Of a DNA stretch of 37,339 nucleotides, positions 8,225-32,955 are shown one piece after another. Source of the DNA: a virus. Taxonomy: Duplodnaviria > Heunggongvirae > Uroviricota > Caudoviricetes. Where the stretch lies: the IMG/VR virus record IMGVR_UViG_2585427777_000002, positions 1 to 37,339 of that record; one strand, written 5' to 3'. The notes below the pieces were generated by a model, which was given only the letters and a program-made list of their open reading frames with translations, was not told where the DNA came from and did no database searches. Every line of letters starts with the position of its first letter. The first letter of the stretch is position 1. The position numbers were made by a program, and so were the translations under genes.

Positions 8225-8495
8225 GTTTTGCACATCCCTGTGCCGCCGCCCGTCAGAAGAATCCTGCTTTGTCGTTGATGTATTCCGCGTGGGTCTGGAT
8301 ATCACGCAGGCATTTACTCACACCGACGATGTAGCAGAACATAGTGGTCAGCTCCGCCGCCGCGCCCGATACGTCGTGCCCGTCTTCCTGTAACTGGTTC
8401 AGCAAATTCATCAGCAGTGAGTTCTCCGTCAGGCCGAGAACACCAGACGGCGAGTGAATCAGGCTACGGTAGCCGGGCTTCAGTGGGGCACTGTA
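8225..8495. repeat. right arm of about 270-bp inverted repeat (3' end of AntA-type antirepressor gene plus about 28 bp)
   Basis: Reverse complement matches 7003..7275. Confidence 0.85.
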
Positions 8496-8903
8496 TTCTT
8501 TTTTGTCTTCCAGCTTGATCGCCTCCATAATGGCGGGCATGAAGCCTGACAAGACCTTCTCCACTTTTGTTTCTTGTTGTCTTAAACGTTTCTCGCATTC
8601 AATGAAGTAGCGTCGTACCTGACGACCTTTTTCGTTACGCTCGACCATCGCCAGCTCTTTGGCTGTATCGAGGGTTAGGTGGTAGTCTTTTGCAGGACGG
8701 CCTCTGCCTATTTTTTCCCGAACTTGGGAAATAATCATAAAGTCTTGATTTTCAACGAAGCCATATTCAGCAATTCGTTCGACAATCCACGAAGCAAATC
8801 GCTTACCCACATCGAGGAAAGTGTGTAAATCACGGGCATTAACGAGAAGAGCGGTTTCGTTGGATATAGTGCCGTTGAATACGGGGATGAGTTGAGCGTT
8901 CAT
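8253..8903 (-). CDS. antirepressor with AntA/AntB-type N-terminal domain
   Basis: 216 aa; N-terminus ARDLHTFLDVGKRFASWIVERIAEYGFVENQDF typical of AntA-type antirepressors; C-terminal 80 aa shared with 6553..7245. Confidence 0.85.
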   Translation of the reverse strand: MNAQLIPVFNGTISNETALLVNARDLHTFLDVGKRFASWIVERIAEYGFVENQDFMIISQVREKIGRGRPAKDYHLTLDTAKELAMVERNEKGRQVRRYFIECEKRLRQQETKVEKVLSGFMPAIMEAIKLEDKKEYSAPLKPGYRSLIHSPSGVLGLTENSLLMNLLNQLQEDGHDVSGAAAELTTMFCYIVGVSKCLRDIQTHAEYINDKAGFF

Positions 8904-9173
8904 GATGGCGTCTCCACTTAGCGAATTACATCACCACCGCTGAGACCAATCAGATGGTGGTGAACTGAACGGAGTTGGTCTTACCGGCCTAAGTGGTACC
9001 GGCGTCCTTTCGGACCCCCATTCAGCCCACCATAATTCTGGCATGACTGTGCTATACGCATAAAAAAACCACGTCTGGCGTGGTATGCGCCACTTAGTAA
9101 TCCGGGAGACCAATCCCGGCACTGGATTTTGCCAGTGCCTGATTACTATGGCACAAGAGGAATGCGATGTAAA
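8904..9173 (-). promoter_or_regulatory. structured 5' leader with attenuator upstream of the AntA-type antirepressor gene (paralogue of 6287..6552)
   Basis: Same three-helix arrangement as the left copy; attenuator region (about 9062..9095) has stems GTGG/CCAC and CCACG/CGTGG plus T7 run, and a downstream hairpin GGTCC-gaaa-GGACC replaces GGCACC-gaaa-GGTGCC. Confidence 0.5.
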
Positions 9174-9231: not shown

Positions 9232-9336
9232 ATTCGTGTAAAAGAGCCAGCAGCGAGAAATTGTGCCGCGACGTAAAATAACGAGCATCTGCTGGCTTAC
9301 AACCAGCGATGTTTCAAATTTGTCACTACTATCAAC

Positions 9337-9735
9337 GTGCCATTCCACGGCGCAGAACTTTATGTTGTCAATCACAACGGCGAACCGTACACCCCAATGA
9401 AACCTATCGTTGAGGGAATGTGTCTAGACTGGAAATCTCAACATAAGAAGATTTCTCAACGCTTCTCGAAGGGTATGGTGGAAATCACCATACCTTCTGC
9501 CGGAGGGGTGCAAGCCATGATTTGTATGGCTTTACGAAAATTGGCAGCTTGGTTGAACAGCATCAGTCCAAACAAAGTCCGCCCTGAAATCCGCGACAAG
9601 GTAATCCAGTATCAGGAAGAGTGTGATGATGTGCTCTACGAATACTGGACTAAAGGCCATGTGGTTAACCCACGCAAAGCTAAAAAGGCGTTGCCGGGTA
9701 AAATCACTACTGAGCAACAGGAGGTATACACTTAA
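9337..9735 (+). CDS. P22 antirepressor N-terminal-domain-like protein (short, start uncertain)
   Basis: Motif MKPIVEGMCLDWKSQHKKI resembles the N-terminal domain of P22-type antirepressors; ORF opens with GTG and has no convincing RBS. Confidence 0.55.
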   Translation: MPFHGAELYVVNHNGEPYTPMKPIVEGMCLDWKSQHKKISQRFSKGMVEITIPSAGGVQAMICMALRKLAAWLNSISPNKVRPEIRDKVIQYQEECDDVLYEYWTKGHVVNPRKAKKALPGKITTEQQEVYT

Positions 9736-9759
9736 CACTTGATCACATTAGCACAAAAC

Positions 9760-9776
9760 ATTACCTTTAAGGTAAT
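9760..9776. promoter_or_regulatory. operator-like palindrome ATTACCTTTAAGGTAAT upstream of gene 9796
   Basis: Perfect TTACC-N5-GGTAA 20 bp upstream of the start; -35-like TTGATC 17 bp before it. Confidence 0.6.
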
Positions 9777-9795
9777 GTTATTGTGAGGAAAAGCA

Positions 9796-10323
9796 ATGGA
9801 AGTTTTCTTAATCATCGTCGGCATCGTGATTATTAATTTTGTTTTTTTATTTATTGCAAAAAAACAAAAAAGTAACGATATGCATGTTTCTACAACTGAT
9901 GATCTTACCTTTGTAGAGCATGCACTGAATGTATCAGGATATAAACTCACCCCATACGGAGCTGGTGTATCACTCATGTCTTTAAGTAACGGTTTTTCAA
10001 AAGAAGAAACATTTTCACATATAGCTTTGATGGCTCTTTCTCAACACGCCAAAGTCGCAGGTAGTGACGCAATTGAGCTTAGTAAAGTTAGCATTCGTGC
10101 GATGTCGATAGCTGAAAACTTAACTAAATTATTCAGGAAAGGTCTTATTCGATCAGAAATATATAAAAATGATTTGAATGCTATCATGGCTGTCAGCACA
10201 ATTAATGAAAACCAAGAGGATTGGATTTCCATAGTTCTGGAAAGCAATAGCACATCTAACAAGGATACTATTGCTTTGCCGATAAGTGCAGAAGCTTCTT
10301 TAGAAGCCATAAACAGCCATTGA
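9796..10323 (+). CDS. hypothetical membrane-anchored protein (AT-rich cargo gene)
   Basis: 175 aa; N-terminal hydrophobic helix MEVFLIIVGIVIINFVFLFIA then a soluble domain; GAGGAAAAG RBS; visibly AT-rich; no family recognised. Confidence 0.6.
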   Translation: MEVFLIIVGIVIINFVFLFIAKKQKSNDMHVSTTDDLTFVEHALNVSGYKLTPYGAGVSLMSLSNGFSKEETFSHIALMALSQHAKVAGSDAIELSKVSIRAMSIAENLTKLFRKGLIRSEIYKNDLNAIMAVSTINENQEDWISIVLESNSTSNKDTIALPISAEASLEAINSH

Positions 10324-10344
10324 AAGAACTCCAATAAATATTGA

Positions 10345-13300
10345 TTAACGCATCACCGGATCCACTTGGTTTATTAGTGGCGCAATCCAGAACAGGTTAT
10401 TGCCGGGTATCAGGGTTCGGACATTATGCACAATACGATCACCGGCATCACCATTCAACACTCCTGCGGTCACATCAATGATGCTATCCGCAAGACCAAA
10501 TGACGGTCCGAATAGAGATCCTACGAATCCACGACTGGCATACCTAGACTGTGTGCCAGTGCCAAATAAAGCCCCCAGCCCAACAGCACCACCAGTAGCC
10601 TTTTCAGCCATGTTGTTATATTCCATCAATGGCCCAAGAATACCGGATCTATCTATACCCTCAAGCACCAGCTTCTCTGGTGACCAGTCAACATTTTTCC
10701 CTTTCGATGCTTCTTTAAGCGCATAGACCAGTGAGCCAAGAGCAATCTGAAATGCAGTGCCATAATAAAATTGCGCAGTTCCTTCCTGTAACCCACCAAG
10801 TAGCGCACGGTTGTATGAAGCCGTTGTGAATGATTTAAACTGAAATATCGTTCGCCCCATTGGAGTACTCGCCCATAAAGGTGTGTCACCAATACCGGGG
10901 GTGATGATAGTGTTATTAACGTCTTTCAGAACCGCTGACTGGAATACTCCGGCAACGTACTGATCGTCCCATTTATCAAAGTTACCAATGTGCCATCCAT
11001 CAATTACCTCACCATGTTTCTCGAACTCACTGCGAATACGCGCAGCCATATTGTCGTTGATACCGAGTTTTGCCATGCGACGTGCAGAAAACGCACCAGA
11101 CAAAATACCGTCTGACGTGAGCATTCCGTTCATGGATTTGTTTATGTCATTAAATCGATCCATGAGTGTCAGCTTGCCGAAGGCATCAGTAATTCGCTCC
11201 ATTCCTGCTTCGACTGCTGTTGTCCTGGAAGAACTGTCAACAAGATCACCAATTGCACGAGAACGTGAATGTAGTACAGCTTCCAATCCAATCCCCATCT
11301 TCAACATCTCTTCTTTGCTGGCCTTAAATGCCGGTGATTGGGATATCTGAGAAGCATAGCCTTTCATGGTGTTACGGAAACCATTAACCATAACCCCTCT
11401 GGCCAGATCTGGAATAGCTGATACTGTCATTCCACCGAGTTTGGTCGTGAAGTTCACATCCCGCAGAAAAGCGCCAGCACGAACAAAAAACGAAGACGGA
11501 TCATCAGGCATACCATATGTACCAACAAGACGATCGCGTAATGCTGTTATGTCTCTGAGATCATTTGCTCTTGATTTTGAAAGTCTGGACTGTTCTTTCC
11601 GTAATTCCTTTTCGTACTTTCGCATTAATGAATCGAGTTTACCCTGAGGAACAACTTCACCATTGCTCTCATAACGTGCTTTCAGATTTGCCACACTTTC
11701 GTCATATTTCGCCTTTATTTTTTCAGGCACTTCCCGTAACAGACTGTCATATTCGTCCTCAATTAATTGCAGACGCTCAGTCATAGTTCGTTTGCCAAAT
11801 GTTCTCGTCAACTCAATTTCTGCTGCCGCTTCACGGATATGACGTTGCAGCACGTAATTCACATCACTTTCAAGATAATCCCTGATAAGACTATCAGGAA
11901 CATTTAATGTTCTTTCTTTCGTACTACCTGCGGCTTTTACAGAAAATACGCTGACAAAATCCTGTGGAACCTTAGCACCAGTAATTTTATTAATTACGAT
12001 ATCCGCTGCAATTTCAGCATCCTCAGGATCCAGTGTTTTATTTCCTCTCGACCACCAGTCAACCAAAATACGTCGAAATTTATCGCGTTCACTGATTATT
12101 TTTCCAACTTTATATATGCGTGGGAAATAGCTTGCCTGGCCTAATGCTTTCAGTTCTTCATCTGGCGGCAATAAACCAAGCTTTTGCATTTCAACTTTCA
12201 CCCGATTTAATACAGTTCGCATCGCCTGCGCCGTTTCCTGAACAACAGGATTAGCATGCACATCACCGCTTCGCATAGCATTCCCAACCTGCTGACGAAA
12301 TGAATCAAAACTCATGTCACCACCATCAGCTTTATACTTTGCGTATGCCTGTTTATTTCCGACAACAACAGCAGCTTCTTCACGCTGCCATCCACGTGTA
12401 CGGGTTTCTACAGCTACCGGTGTTTCAATCCCCCTTTCATTTCCTTTAAGGGTGAAATTATTTTCGGCTAACTCCAGCGTTGTTTTTCGCACCGTCTTGG
12501 ACGGAGACTCCATTAACCTTGTCAAAGGAGTAAGATAGCTCCCTGCTTTCCATGCAGCCTTTCCAACCCACCCACCGGAAACAGGGGTTAAATCATCCAG
12601 AGTCGCTGTATCAATTTTCATAGCACCAACACTACCACCATCGGAAAGCGAAGCGGCAGCCCTGTCAGTCGCTGATGTAATGCTCATATTATCAAGAGCA
12701 TCAGCAACCTCACGTGTGGCTGCAGCCCGGACGGATGGCGAAAGCGCAACACCAGCACTGGCAAACACGCCGCTCATCATCGCACCCGCTGCAACGTGAG
12801 CGGCACTTTCACCCCATGAGCGTGTTATTTGCTGATTATTCAGTACAACCTCGCTTAATGCTGTACCGGCAGCACCAATCGCAATCTGTGAGCCAATACG
12901 CGCCAGTGCCCCTCCTTGAGCACCGGGAATAAACATTGACGCAACAGTAACCGGATCCATTCCCGCAGCAATACTGGCAAGGGTTCCAACTACGCCAGCA
13001 TCAGACAATAAACGTCTGTCTTCATTTTCATCATCTATCTGCTGCTTAATCCACGCCGTTTCCTCTGGCGATCGGGAATCTGCAAATTTCGCCCCCCAGT
13101 ATTCATAACCGTGCAACTCATTTTTATCAGCATATGGGTTATAACCCTCGACCGGTTCAAACTGTCTGGCAGGACGGAAAAAACCAGCCAGAATATTGTT
13201 CTGTCGTATTGCTGCGGCAAGCAATGAAGGCTCTTTGGGACGAGGTTCAGGGTTCTTACCTTCTGGCGGATGCACATCAAAACTCTGTTCATCAGGTTCA

Positions 13301-13365
13301 GGAATGGCGAAACCAGCAGAAATAAATCCGTTATTGTTTGATTCAGATACAGGATAGAACGGCAT
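10345..13365 (-). CDS. large internal virion/ejection protein (T7 gp15/gp16-like by synteny)
   Basis: 1006 aa; last of four consecutive genes following tail tubular protein B, the position of the T7 internal core proteins. Confidence 0.65.
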   Translation of the reverse strand: MPFYPVSESNNNGFISAGFAIPEPDEQSFDVHPPEGKNPEPRPKEPSLLAAAIRQNNILAGFFRPARQFEPVEGYNPYADKNELHGYEYWGAKFADSRSPEETAWIKQQIDDENEDRRLLSDAGVVGTLASIAAGMDPVTVASMFIPGAQGGALARIGSQIAIGAAGTALSEVVLNNQQITRSWGESAAHVAAGAMMSGVFASAGVALSPSVRAAATREVADALDNMSITSATDRAAASLSDGGSVGAMKIDTATLDDLTPVSGGWVGKAAWKAGSYLTPLTRLMESPSKTVRKTTLELAENNFTLKGNERGIETPVAVETRTRGWQREEAAVVVGNKQAYAKYKADGGDMSFDSFRQQVGNAMRSGDVHANPVVQETAQAMRTVLNRVKVEMQKLGLLPPDEELKALGQASYFPRIYKVGKIISERDKFRRILVDWWSRGNKTLDPEDAEIAADIVINKITGAKVPQDFVSVFSVKAAGSTKERTLNVPDSLIRDYLESDVNYVLQRHIREAAAEIELTRTFGKRTMTERLQLIEDEYDSLLREVPEKIKAKYDESVANLKARYESNGEVVPQGKLDSLMRKYEKELRKEQSRLSKSRANDLRDITALRDRLVGTYGMPDDPSSFFVRAGAFLRDVNFTTKLGGMTVSAIPDLARGVMVNGFRNTMKGYASQISQSPAFKASKEEMLKMGIGLEAVLHSRSRAIGDLVDSSSRTTAVEAGMERITDAFGKLTLMDRFNDINKSMNGMLTSDGILSGAFSARRMAKLGINDNMAARIRSEFEKHGEVIDGWHIGNFDKWDDQYVAGVFQSAVLKDVNNTIITPGIGDTPLWASTPMGRTIFQFKSFTTASYNRALLGGLQEGTAQFYYGTAFQIALGSLVYALKEASKGKNVDWSPEKLVLEGIDRSGILGPLMEYNNMAEKATGGAVGLGALFGTGTQSRYASRGFVGSLFGPSFGLADSIIDVTAGVLNGDAGDRIVHNVRTLIPGNNLFWIAPLINQVDPVMR

Positions 13366-25061: not shown

Positions 25062-25078
25062 ATTACCTTTAAGGTAAC
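25062..25078. promoter_or_regulatory. operator-like palindrome ATTACCTTTAAGGTAAC with upstream TTGACA
   Basis: Perfect TTACC-N5-GGTAA; TTGACA at 25041..25046; divergent region between gene 24972 and the tRNA. Confidence 0.6.
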
Positions 25079-25399: not shown

Positions 25400-25476
25400 G
25401 TGGCATTAGCTCAGCTGGACAGAGCAACCGCCTTCTAAGCGGTTGGTCGCAGGTTCGAATCCTGCATGCCACGCCA
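25400..25476 (+). tRNA. tRNA-Arg (anticodon UCU), phage-encoded
   Basis: 77 nt folded by eye: 7-bp acceptor stem GTGGCAT/ATGCCAC, D-arm GCTC/GAGC, anticodon stem ACCGC/GCGGT with loop CTTCTAA, T-arm GCAGG-TTCGAAT-CCTGC, discriminator G and CCA end. Confidence 0.9.
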
Positions 25477-32251: not shown

Positions 32252-32316
32252 TTCACCCATAAGGTAACAAAAATCAAGGATAGTTACCTATGAGGTGCAT
32301 TTACCTGTTGGGTAAT
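32252..32316. promoter_or_regulatory. tripartite operator region between the cro-like and repressor genes (OR-like)
   Basis: Three sites: TTCACCCATAAGGTAAC (32252..32268, imperfect), GTTACCTATGAGGTGCA (32283..32299, imperfect), TTTACCTGTTGGGTAAT (32300..32316, perfect). Confidence 0.65.
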
Positions 32317-32370: not shown

Positions 32371-32955
32371 ATGAAAAGTATCCAGGACGTCCGCAGGCAA
32401 AATCTCAACGACTTGATCGACCGTGAATTCAATGGTGTTCAGACGCGGATGGCAGAAAAACTTGGAACTCAGGCAAATCTGGTAAACCGCTGGGCTCTTG
32501 GCAAGAAGGTTATCGGCGACCAGGTTGCACGAAAAATTGAAGCTGCCGCCAATAAACCCCGTAACTGGCTTGATATTGATCGCTCGCTTTCTCAGGAGGG
32601 TTTTCAGCCTGTCGGCCCGAGCGATATAGGTCAGCTGGCGGCTCACAACCTGGAACGCTGGATGAGCGAAAGCCGCGACCTTTCAACGCAGGGAAAACTA
32701 CACCGCGCATCCGGCGTCGCCCAGGTGACAATCAGCCGCCTGTTAAACAATGAAGTCAGCGTTTCCATTTCCACCCTGGAGAATGTTGCATCCGCATTCG
32801 GGCGTCACGGCTATGAATTACTGATTCACCCGCACGACCCTGCGACTATCAACTATGATCGCTCGCGCTACGCATTGTTACCTGAAACAGAGAAGGCAAA
32901 GATCGAAAGTTACATTGAATTTGTCATCAACCAGAACGAAAAAAGAAAACAATAA
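32371..32955 (+). CDS. prophage repressor with two tandem XRE-type HTH domains and no peptidase domain
   Basis: 194 aa; two Cro/C1-type HTH-like segments (TRMAEKLGTQANLVNRWALGKK and LHRASGVAQVTISRLLNNEVSVS); no S24 Ala-Gly or Ser/Lys motifs seen; divergent from the cro-like gene. Confidence 0.7.
   Translation: MKSIQDVRRQNLNDLIDREFNGVQTRMAEKLGTQANLVNRWALGKKVIGDQVARKIEAAANKPRNWLDIDRSLSQEGFQPVGPSDIGQLAAHNLERWMSESRDLSTQGKLHRASGVAQVTISRLLNNEVSVSISTLENVASAFGRHGYELLIHPHDPATINYDRSRYALLPETEKAKIESYIEFVINQNEKRKQ

Follow-up and report, generated by a model that had tools for sequence, protein, structure and literature searches.

What is the small gene that lies between an antirepressor gene and the gene for an internal virion protein in this prophage, and what might its product do? 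The window, by which we mean the whole stretch of 37,339 nucleotides analyzed, is an E. coli prophage, a podovirus of the epsilon15-like (Uetakevirus-type) kind. Strain A_5 of E. coli carries a copy that is 99% identical, with one half of an autotransporter gene on either side of it. Annotations of the A_5 copy include a range of virion components (a Bbp16-type cement protein, a gp10 staple, a T7-gp14-like core protein, an SLT internal protein and the portal) as well as terminase, replication genes of the lambda-P/DnaT type, an HTH repressor, RecT and an integrase. The gene under study, here called ORF175, is named hypothetical protein throughout. A literature search with its RefSeq accession found no paper, and the gene is absent from the Uetakevirus regulatory paper (PMC9782041).

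ORF175 is located on the + strand at 9796..10323 (ATG at 9796, TGA at 10321-10323; 175 amino acids plus stop) and is preceded by a ribosome-binding site GAGGA (9785..9789, + strand), which lies 6 nt ahead of the ATG and is kept in the upstream alignment. The gene had been called AT-rich by eye, and the composition agrees: its GC content amounts to 0.354 against 0.48 for the window. The genes of its homologues are also AT-richer than their own surroundings in all seven loci examined. An artefactual open reading frame can be ruled out, given a dN/dS of 0.26 in comparison with a 93%-identical allele (12 synonymous and 12 non-synonymous changes) and the presence of the identical protein, with its reading frame intact, on 659 contigs. 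Both the length and the N-terminal helix are kept in homologues down to 29% identity. Two antisense open reading frames (9732-9977 and 10041-10334) were discarded as well, since the conservation among homologues tracks the + frame. Overall, ORF175 is a genuine accessory gene of an E. coli prophage.

The immediate surroundings are informative. ORF175 directly follows a truncated antirepressor gene (9337..9735, + strand), so that its placement next to the antirepressor cluster by the sequence-only reading stands. The truncated gene encodes the P22_AR_N domain only (Pfam, 2.4e-43) and is listed by RefSeq as a pseudogene 'missing C-terminus'; an intact 314-aa version is present in TL-2011b. Further to the left there are two more antirepressor genes, each behind an isrK and C4 antisense-RNA module, followed by the tailspike gene. 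On the right, only 21 nt separate ORF175 from the stop of a convergent gene for a 1006-aa internal virion (ejection-type) protein (10345..13365, - strand; phrog_342 'internal virion protein with endolysin domain', 2.3e-208). No terminator-like site is present in these 21 nt; hairpins flank the homologues in the related loci L015, L019 and L020, on one or both sides.

Two origins or roles suggested by such a position were considered and rejected. ORF175 does not represent the missing C-terminus of the antirepressor: the hhalign probability is at most 0.13% against the Ant proteins of TL-2011b and P22, and there is no Pfam match to the antirepressor families P22_AR_N, AntA, BRO-N and ORF6N. A lysis or holin role is rejected because the lysis cassette sits elsewhere. 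In the near-identical prophage L001 the lysis genes are located at 3640-5437, past the tailspike and about 6.8-8.9 kb apart from the ORF175 gene at 12497; they comprise two holins, a GH19 endolysin and DUF2514. The architecture of one TM helix with a large folded domain is also not that of a holin-like small polytopic protein.

Comparison with relatives shows that ORF175 is part of a replaceable cassette of 754 bp (9597..10350), which comprises the 3' end of the antirepressor pseudogene, the promoter/operator and ORF175 itself. In E. coli UTME-9 (L002) the homology ends at 9596 and restarts at 10351, and the interval is occupied by 409 bp holding, on the opposite strand, a gene for a 98-aa protein with two TM helices. 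A query of 1501 bp (9300-10800, gene included) finds a match covering 80% or more of its length in only 5 out of 5426 complete E. coli genomes and a partial match in 838. ORF175 is a moron-type accessory gene of this epsilon15-like E. coli prophage, the moron traits seen being the deviant GC content and the presence or absence among similar phages (as in L002, where the cassette is replaced). The internal virion protein is 98% identical between phages with and without ORF175 and therefore shows no sign of co-variation with it.

In more distant relatives the homologue is found in comparable surroundings. In other epsilon15-like prophages, homologues with 40%, 40% and 29% identity (L012, L015 and L020, respectively) converge on a homologous internal virion gene. 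The two genes are directly convergent in L012 and L020, with internal virion proteins of 58% and 46% identity, and in L015 (Proteus terrae) a 98-aa gene lies in between. The order in L019 is antirepressor C-terminus, ORF175 homologue and a convergent 54-aa TM protein. In a Proteus lambdoid prophage (L016) the homologue immediately follows the repressor gene and is itself followed by an ASH/ORF6N antirepressor pair. Taken together, homologues at 29-47% identity retain length, TM helix and slot, and in one case also the promoter/operator geometry.

The slot itself was surveyed by taking the first open reading frame past the stop of the internal virion protein gene in 80 IMG/VR contigs that share the C-terminus of that protein. 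The most frequent occupant is a 113-aa soluble protein (24 contigs), followed by a TM-anchored protein of 187/196 aa (15 contigs). A TM-anchored Cys-rich protein and signal-peptide proteins of about 106 aa are found on 5 contigs each; ORF175, the 98-aa two-TM protein and a 159-aa lipoprotein each occupy the slot on 4 contigs. Finally, a 182-aa protein with two TM helices is seen twice and another lipoprotein once. Data were available for 77 loci, and in about 40 of these the first open reading frame encodes a protein that is TM-anchored, a lipoprotein or equipped with a signal peptide. Based on this survey the slot is a hot spot of envelope-directed cargo.

ORF175 fits this picture in being membrane-anchored. 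As had been read from the translation, the protein has a single N-terminal hydrophobic helix: residues 3-21 (9802..9858, + strand) make up its one hydrophobic segment (mean Kyte-Doolittle hydropathy 3.18) and are followed by KKQK. Only 2 residues precede the TM helix, and the part on its C-terminal side comprises about 150 residues. ORF175 is a bitopic protein with one TM helix and a compact helical domain. The topology prediction that had been proposed as a check returns one TM helix with an N-out/C-in orientation. All 13 TM-anchored family members carry 0-1 lysines or arginines ahead of the helix, against 3-6 within the first 15 residues behind it; the soluble family members lack a signal peptide. 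Given the basic residues behind the helix and the positive-inside rule, we infer that ORF175 is tethered to the inner membrane with its domain on the cytoplasmic face.

Is the protein an orphan, as the sequence-only reading had it? It is not. A word-indexed homologue search yields nine clusters of close relatives, two of them at 47% identity, and an exhaustive profile search extends the family to 124 representatives at E<=1e-3 (73 at E<=1e-10). The portion common to the family spans query residues of about 35 to 155 (9898..10260, + strand) and corresponds to a conserved helical domain, predicted to be cytoplasmic, that is covered by PHROG 21690 only. The match of ORF175 to this PHROG of unknown function is full-length (E 7.5e-104, residues 1-175 on profile positions 1-175), and the same PHROG is matched by 95 out of 95 family members tested. 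The architectures vary: about 13 members have a single N-terminal TM helix as in ORF175, many are soluble proteins of 130-155 aa that start with MFGFFKKK or similar, and in many others the domain is located behind N-terminal regions of 100-190 residues. A recurrent N-terminal module in the fused members is wHTH-like ('MSYPP...GHPDR...'); one such N-terminal domain matches MarR at 2e-4. As judged from these profile matches, the PHROG 21690 family reaches soluble and fused non-phage proteins, which was previously not known.

Some of the other family members reside in mobile or prophage contexts and some in ordinary chromosomal neighbourhoods. The closest homologue outside E. coli (47% identity, Enterobacteriaceae RIT693) is chromosomal and lies between a TonB-dependent receptor gene and proBA. 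For several soluble or fused members the context is uninformative or the contig is short. When searching for related loci with the narrow alignment, one species genome and five IMG/VR contigs were obtained. A tblastn search of 50,697 phage genomes (INPHARED) with ORF175 and the family members P0017 and P0011 did not find the family in sequenced isolates.

The absence of a recognizable motif was confirmed on a larger scale. ORF175 belongs to no Pfam or NCBIfam family, and nothing meaningful was found there for 95 relatives. In PADLOC-DB v2, ORF175 has no match at E<=1 and the 95 relatives give scattered single weak matches. A sequence-profile search of the PDB did not produce a match for ORF175 either (best E 0.13). 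Structure prediction from 9 sequences was poor (pLDDT 51.8) and required the 95-sequence alignment, with which AlphaFold2 reaches a pLDDT of 94 and a pTM of 0.80. The resulting model shows a continuous helix over residues 2-46, followed by a compact bundle of five further helices and two short strands. Foldseek comparison of this model with PDB and BFVD gives nothing at E<=0.001; the domain is thus confidently modelled, and its predicted fold has no specific match in the solved or viral structures searched. Nearly invariant columns of the alignment are G55, A82, D126, A129, W143, L148 and A160, i.e. small or hydrophobic residues plus D126. Since none of these looks catalytic, the pattern suggests that the family domain is a binding module rather than an enzyme.

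The remaining claim of the sequence-only reading concerned an operator-bearing promoter for the gene alone, which probably stands as well. A putative sigma-70 promoter lies at 9739..9767 (+ strand), with the -35 element TTGATC at 9739-9744, a 17-nt spacer and the -10 element TACCTT at 9762-9767. It is overlapped by a perfect palindrome, ATTACCTTTAAGGTAAT (9760..9776), such that the -10 hexamer falls inside the left arm of the operator. A generic promoter scan made no call upstream of ORF175 because the -10 element is weak. The distance from operator to ATG is 19 nt, which holds the ribosome-binding site, and is identical in L012. The arrangement of TTGAT(C/T), 17 nt, TACCTT, ribosome-binding site and ATG is also found upstream of P0011, a 39%-identical homologue, and precedes two diverged versions of the unrelated TM-anchored Cys-rich protein. 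In four aligned upstream regions, and also in L059, the promoter hexamers and the operator are conserved and the spacer is variable.

The palindrome belongs to a motif family with 16 members: the operator motif ATTACC-N5-GGTAAT occurs at 16 sites in the window at <=2 mismatches, where 0.92 would be expected by chance. Three operator-like sites (32253-32316) lie between a cro-like gene and the divergent gene for a 194-aa prophage repressor (32371..32955, + strand), and two more (33012 and 33073) are found just past the repressor gene, ahead of the recombination operon. Further sites precede both isrK/C4-ant promoters, orf211 and a gene with a LexA box. The repressor, our candidate for the trans-acting regulator, matches Pfam HTH_3 (1.2e-09) and contains a second HTH-like stretch; a match to the S24 peptidase was not found. 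A Proteus lambdoid prophage with a repressor of 33% identity carries the motif in its OR-like and OL-like regions as well. Because the sites fill the OR-like and OL-like regions both here and in the Proteus prophage, we infer that the motif belongs to the main repressor of the prophage and is probably shared with Cro.

With the operator of the main repressor overlapping its -10 element, ORF175 should be repressed in the lysogen. The 194-aa repressor would bind the operator and occlude the -10 element, so that ORF175 is probably off in the lysogen and turned on by induction or infection. A route to derepression can be proposed from the window itself. A consensus LexA box (5944-5961) precedes a gene whose 85-aa product shares 42% identity with the C-terminal domain of the antirepressor. 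An SOS response would thus probably produce a small antirepressor, upon which repression would be lost and the ant operons and ORF175 would be expressed; alternatively, ORF175 and the antirepressor operons might be derepressed jointly when the phage enters a naive cell. We hold the anatomy and regulation of ORF175, considered jointly, with high confidence.

The function is less certain. Our favoured reading, with a probability of roughly 0.3, is a role in phage-phage competition or exclusion at the cytoplasmic face of the inner membrane. It is suggested by the slot of the gene, by its product's membrane tether and by its behaviour as cargo. The sequence-only reading had guessed at superinfection exclusion or abortive infection; the position of the gene favours this guess, which is so far neither borne out nor contradicted. 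After derepression the tethered domain would bind a partner at the membrane, and the bound domain would interfere with genome delivery or establishment of competing phages; such early-expressed exclusion would be analogous to P22 SieA in position and to T4 Imm in timing. Several observations argue against it: the gene is predicted to be repressed in the lysogen, unlike sieA, there is no homology to known exclusion, abortive-infection or defence proteins (SieA and PADLOC were searched), and the large domain is predicted to be cytoplasmic and also occurs in soluble non-phage proteins. Also counting against it are the chromosomal location of the closest homologue outside E. coli, the internal virion protein showing no co-variation with ORF175, the weak -10 element, the terminator not found behind the gene and the lack of tblastn matches to the family in 50,697 phage genomes. 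Given the domain's occurrence in soluble proteins, in wHTH-like fusions and in chromosomal neighbourhoods, a generic partner-binding or regulatory role is equally natural. A more specific version of the exclusion reading, which we consider doubtful, starts from the promoter, the operator and the 'MEVF...' transmembrane leader that the Cys-rich protein and ORF175 share. The two proteins could be two heads of a modular class that is repressor-controlled, early and tethered to the inner membrane, and the heads would stop a competitor genome emerging from the ejection conduit, acting from the cytoplasmic face.

The most direct competitor of the exclusion reading is an accessory role in the lysis-lysogeny or induction circuit. 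On derepression, the tethered domain would sequester or stabilize a soluble regulator (candidates being the repressor, an antirepressor or a host factor, for instance a membrane protease) and thereby sharpen lytic or lysogenic commitment. An antirepressor gene lies beside ORF175 or its homologue in six of six phage contexts (the window, L015, L016, L019 and L020, and the same region in L012), the operator is common to ORF175 and both isrK/C4-ant operons, and in the Proteus lambdoid prophage the homologue even adjoins the repressor gene. The domain is also found elsewhere behind wHTH-like N-termini, like the sensor or oligomerization domain of a regulator. Nonetheless, we rate such a role as rather unlikely: ORF175 is not similar to antirepressor C-terminal domains, and antirepressor clusters are cargo hot spots themselves, such that the linkage may be positional alone. 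Moreover, the near-complete ORF175 region is present in just 5 of the 5426 E. coli genomes while the ant cluster is common, and therefore the circuit works without ORF175. Early host takeover or anti-defence, in which the domain would inhibit a host membrane process (such as a membrane-bound abortive-infection effector, division or transport) in favour of lytic growth, draws on the predicted early, repressor-controlled expression and on the predicted combination of a membrane tether with a cytoplasmic domain. The invariant residues, not catalytic-looking and suggestive of a binding module, are in line with it too, as is the alternative allele, where the same promoter, operator and TM leader are joined to another cytoplasmic domain as if the effector heads were swappable. 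We find it unlikely, however, as chromosomal non-phage homologues are unexpected for a dedicated anti-defence factor and envelope proteins, as are typical of exclusion or conversion cargo, predominate in the slot.

Two further possibilities carry still less weight. An abortive-infection or toxic membrane protein, killing or arresting the cell once derepressed, would be in keeping with a small membrane protein within cargo DNA and with the YafO-family toxin genes in the same antirepressor region of sister prophages. It is very unlikely nevertheless: a single TM helix joined to a large soluble, folded domain is not how a pore-former is built, there is neither a PADLOC match nor an adjacent antitoxin-like partner, and expression would coincide with the lytic cycle of the phage itself, so that self-toxicity would be costly. 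ORF175 might finally be a hitch-hiker without function, a remnant in decay from the recombination event that cut the antirepressor gene short; its cassette does interrupt that gene and is rare in E. coli. We judge this highly improbable in view of the dN/dS of 0.26 and the intact frame on so many contigs, and because diverged homologues keep the length, helix, slot and once the promoter/operator geometry described above.

New in this analysis are a sizeable uncharacterized domain family, the very probable control of ORF175 by the prophage repressor and the location of the gene in a hot spot equivalent to that of sieA. Prophage cargo in such slots decides which phages can infect the lysogen, which matters for phage therapy and strain ecology. 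What was a hypothetical protein is now a curatable domain family, with 124 representatives, a confident model and no Pfam entry. Its predicted topology, regulator and operator can now be tested, aided by a cassette with natural presence/absence variants and by an alternative allele with the same regulatory and membrane-anchor module as ORF175. If the exclusion reading is true, epsilon15-like phages would own an analogue of SieA with unrelated sequence, another architecture and opposite regulation. Otherwise, the close linkage with antirepressors would point to an unrecognized component of the induction circuit. Should the modular class exist, this would amount to a new superinfection-exclusion mechanism based on a domain without a specific structural match, which in many non-phage bacteria would act more generally, as a binding module close to the membrane.

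How does ORF175 compare with known systems? An annotated homologue was not found in Pfam, PHROGs, PADLOC or NCBIfam, and the comparison concerns position, architecture and timing. T4 Imm and HK97 gp15 are small inner-membrane proteins that block DNA entry of a superinfecting phage; Imm is made early in lytic infection and gp15 is a moron product. The early lytic timing of Imm is also the timing predicted for ORF175, whereas neither Imm nor gp15 is known to have a cytoplasmic domain comparable to the one of ORF175. The closest parallel in layout is P22, which according to its annotation has gene 16, a convergent sieA, mnt/arc/ant and then the tailspike. Hence sieA and ORF175 occupy an equivalent slot, convergent with the last ejection-protein gene and with the antirepressor region beyond, and both SieA and the ORF175 product are small inner-membrane proteins of a temperate podovirus. 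Homology between the two is rejected, as neither sequence nor profile similarity was seen with type A SieA, the type compared (BLASTP E 0.21 over 7 residues, hhalign probability 0.2%). The architectures differ too: SieA is predicted to have three TM helices (PMC10883804) and has little soluble mass; ORF175 combines one TM helix with a predicted cytoplasmic part of about 150 residues. SieA is believed to act at the inner membrane, on the conduit of the incoming ejection proteins (PMC10883804). Regulation differs as well, since sieA has its own constitutive promoter and is on in the prophage, whereas the promoter of ORF175 carries the operator of the main repressor.

With respect to regulation a second parallel is offered by P1/P7 immI. 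ORF175 itself has no counterpart there, and the P1 C1 site is asymmetric whereas the operator described here is a 17-bp palindrome. As in immI, however, isrK/C4 RNAs are found behind operator-bearing promoters in the neighbouring antirepressor operons, and, just as in P1, a single repressor seems to govern many scattered operators, that of ORF175 included.

Across 80 IMG/VR relatives (L034-L113), the slot just 3' of the internal virion protein gene, occupied in the window by ORF175 (the 175-aa membrane-anchored protein gene, 9796-10323, + strand), forms a hot spot of cargo genes with envelope-directed products. The survey of these loci relied on crude ORF calling, with ATG starts only and the first ORF only; the slot products include TM-anchored proteins, proteins with a signal peptide, a two-TM protein of 98 aa and lipoproteins of two kinds, whose lipoboxes read LVGC and LSGC. 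Among the slot genes of L034-L113, the repressor operator occurs only at those that encode a MEVF leader.

This leader is found on two kinds of protein. The 77-bp promoter/operator/RBS of ORF175 also precedes a gene for a Cys-rich protein in sister phages, located at 1-732 (-) in E. coli UTME-9 (L002), at approximately 5001-5793 (+) in L026 and, in L059, in the equivalent slot adjoining the internal virion protein gene. ORF175 and the Cys-rich protein have the transmembrane leader 'MEVF(W/L)I(V/I)VG' in common and are otherwise different. The latter protein is about 228 aa long, its cytoplasmic part is Cys-rich and zinc-ribbon-like, and a Pfam scan returned no match for it. Judged from these sequences, the pair looks like a modular design of an anchor plus an exchangeable head.

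Relatives of ORF175 also occur outside this setting. At L003 10001-13650 and L005 7956-8531, a homologue with 47% identity, found in Enterobacteriaceae RIT693 and on a related metagenomic contig, is chromosomal and has a TonB-dependent receptor gene as its neighbour. Some 2.3 kb from the L003 copy there is a segment resembling a P4 satellite (Ogr/Delta, Psu). Within the domain family to which ORF175 belongs (PHROG 21690), approximately 30 soluble or fused members (P0019-P0129) carry a brief hydrophobic-basic stretch at the very start of the sequence, for example MFGFFKKK, MFGLFKKK and MFGWFKKR. Such a start could act as an amphipathic membrane-targeting tag, in which case the entire domain family would be membrane-proximal.

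Next to the tailspike, where the GC content of the window is at its lowest (0.31), a 267-aa ORF (2106-2909, + strand) shows features of hexapeptide repeats (left-handed beta-helix acyltransferase), with a Pfam Hexapep score of 20 bits, which is below the cut-off. This ORF is possibly a conversion gene whose product modifies the O-antigen.

The antirepressor region contains two isrK plus C4 antisense-RNA modules matched by Rfam (61-79 bits), mutually inverted in orientation at 6322-6504 (+) and 8953-9138 (-). Upstream of each is an operator-bearing promoter (TTTACA, 17 nt, CATAGT), and downstream follow antirepressor genes at 6508-7245 (+) and 8253-8903 (-). The modules are connected by inverted repeats of 105, 59, 30 and 20 nt. 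A further inverted repeat of 279 nt (6990-7268 and 8230-8508, 95% identity) represents the C-terminal domain common to the two antirepressor genes, which differ elsewhere and are encoded on opposite strands; this repeat is likely a substrate for inversion or recombination. Between both operons lies orf211 (7474-8109, +; phrog_1349, function unknown), which is preceded by operator-like sites at 7317 and 7418 and had no match in a Pfam scan. In sister prophages the orf211 region carries a YafO-family toxin gene.

A consensus LexA box (TACTGTATAAATATACAGTT, 5944-5961, +) lies 5' of an 85-aa ORF (5982-6239, +) with 42% identity to the C-terminal domain of the AntA-type antirepressor, and a perfect repressor operator (5890-5906) is found just 5' of the box. 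Since no S24 peptidase match was found for the 194-aa repressor, we read the 85-aa ORF as a candidate small antirepressor under SOS control, which looks like the Tum/Gifsy style.

The operator ATTACC-N5-GGTAAT is scattered over the whole prophage, with 16 sites observed against 0.92 expected, among them 25062, 28252, 28270, 29950, 30012, 31915, 32300, 33012 and 33073. The pairs 28252/28270 and 29950/30012 fall within or between early genes, and the operator-like site at 25062 accompanies a tRNA gene (25400-25473, +; Rfam 71.7 bits) between the portal and terminase regions, annotated as tRNA-Arg in a near-identical RefSeq prophage. This scatter suggests a multi-operon regulon resembling that of P1 C1, and the succession of promoter, isrK/C4 and antirepressor gene is similar in layout to the immI region of P1/P7.
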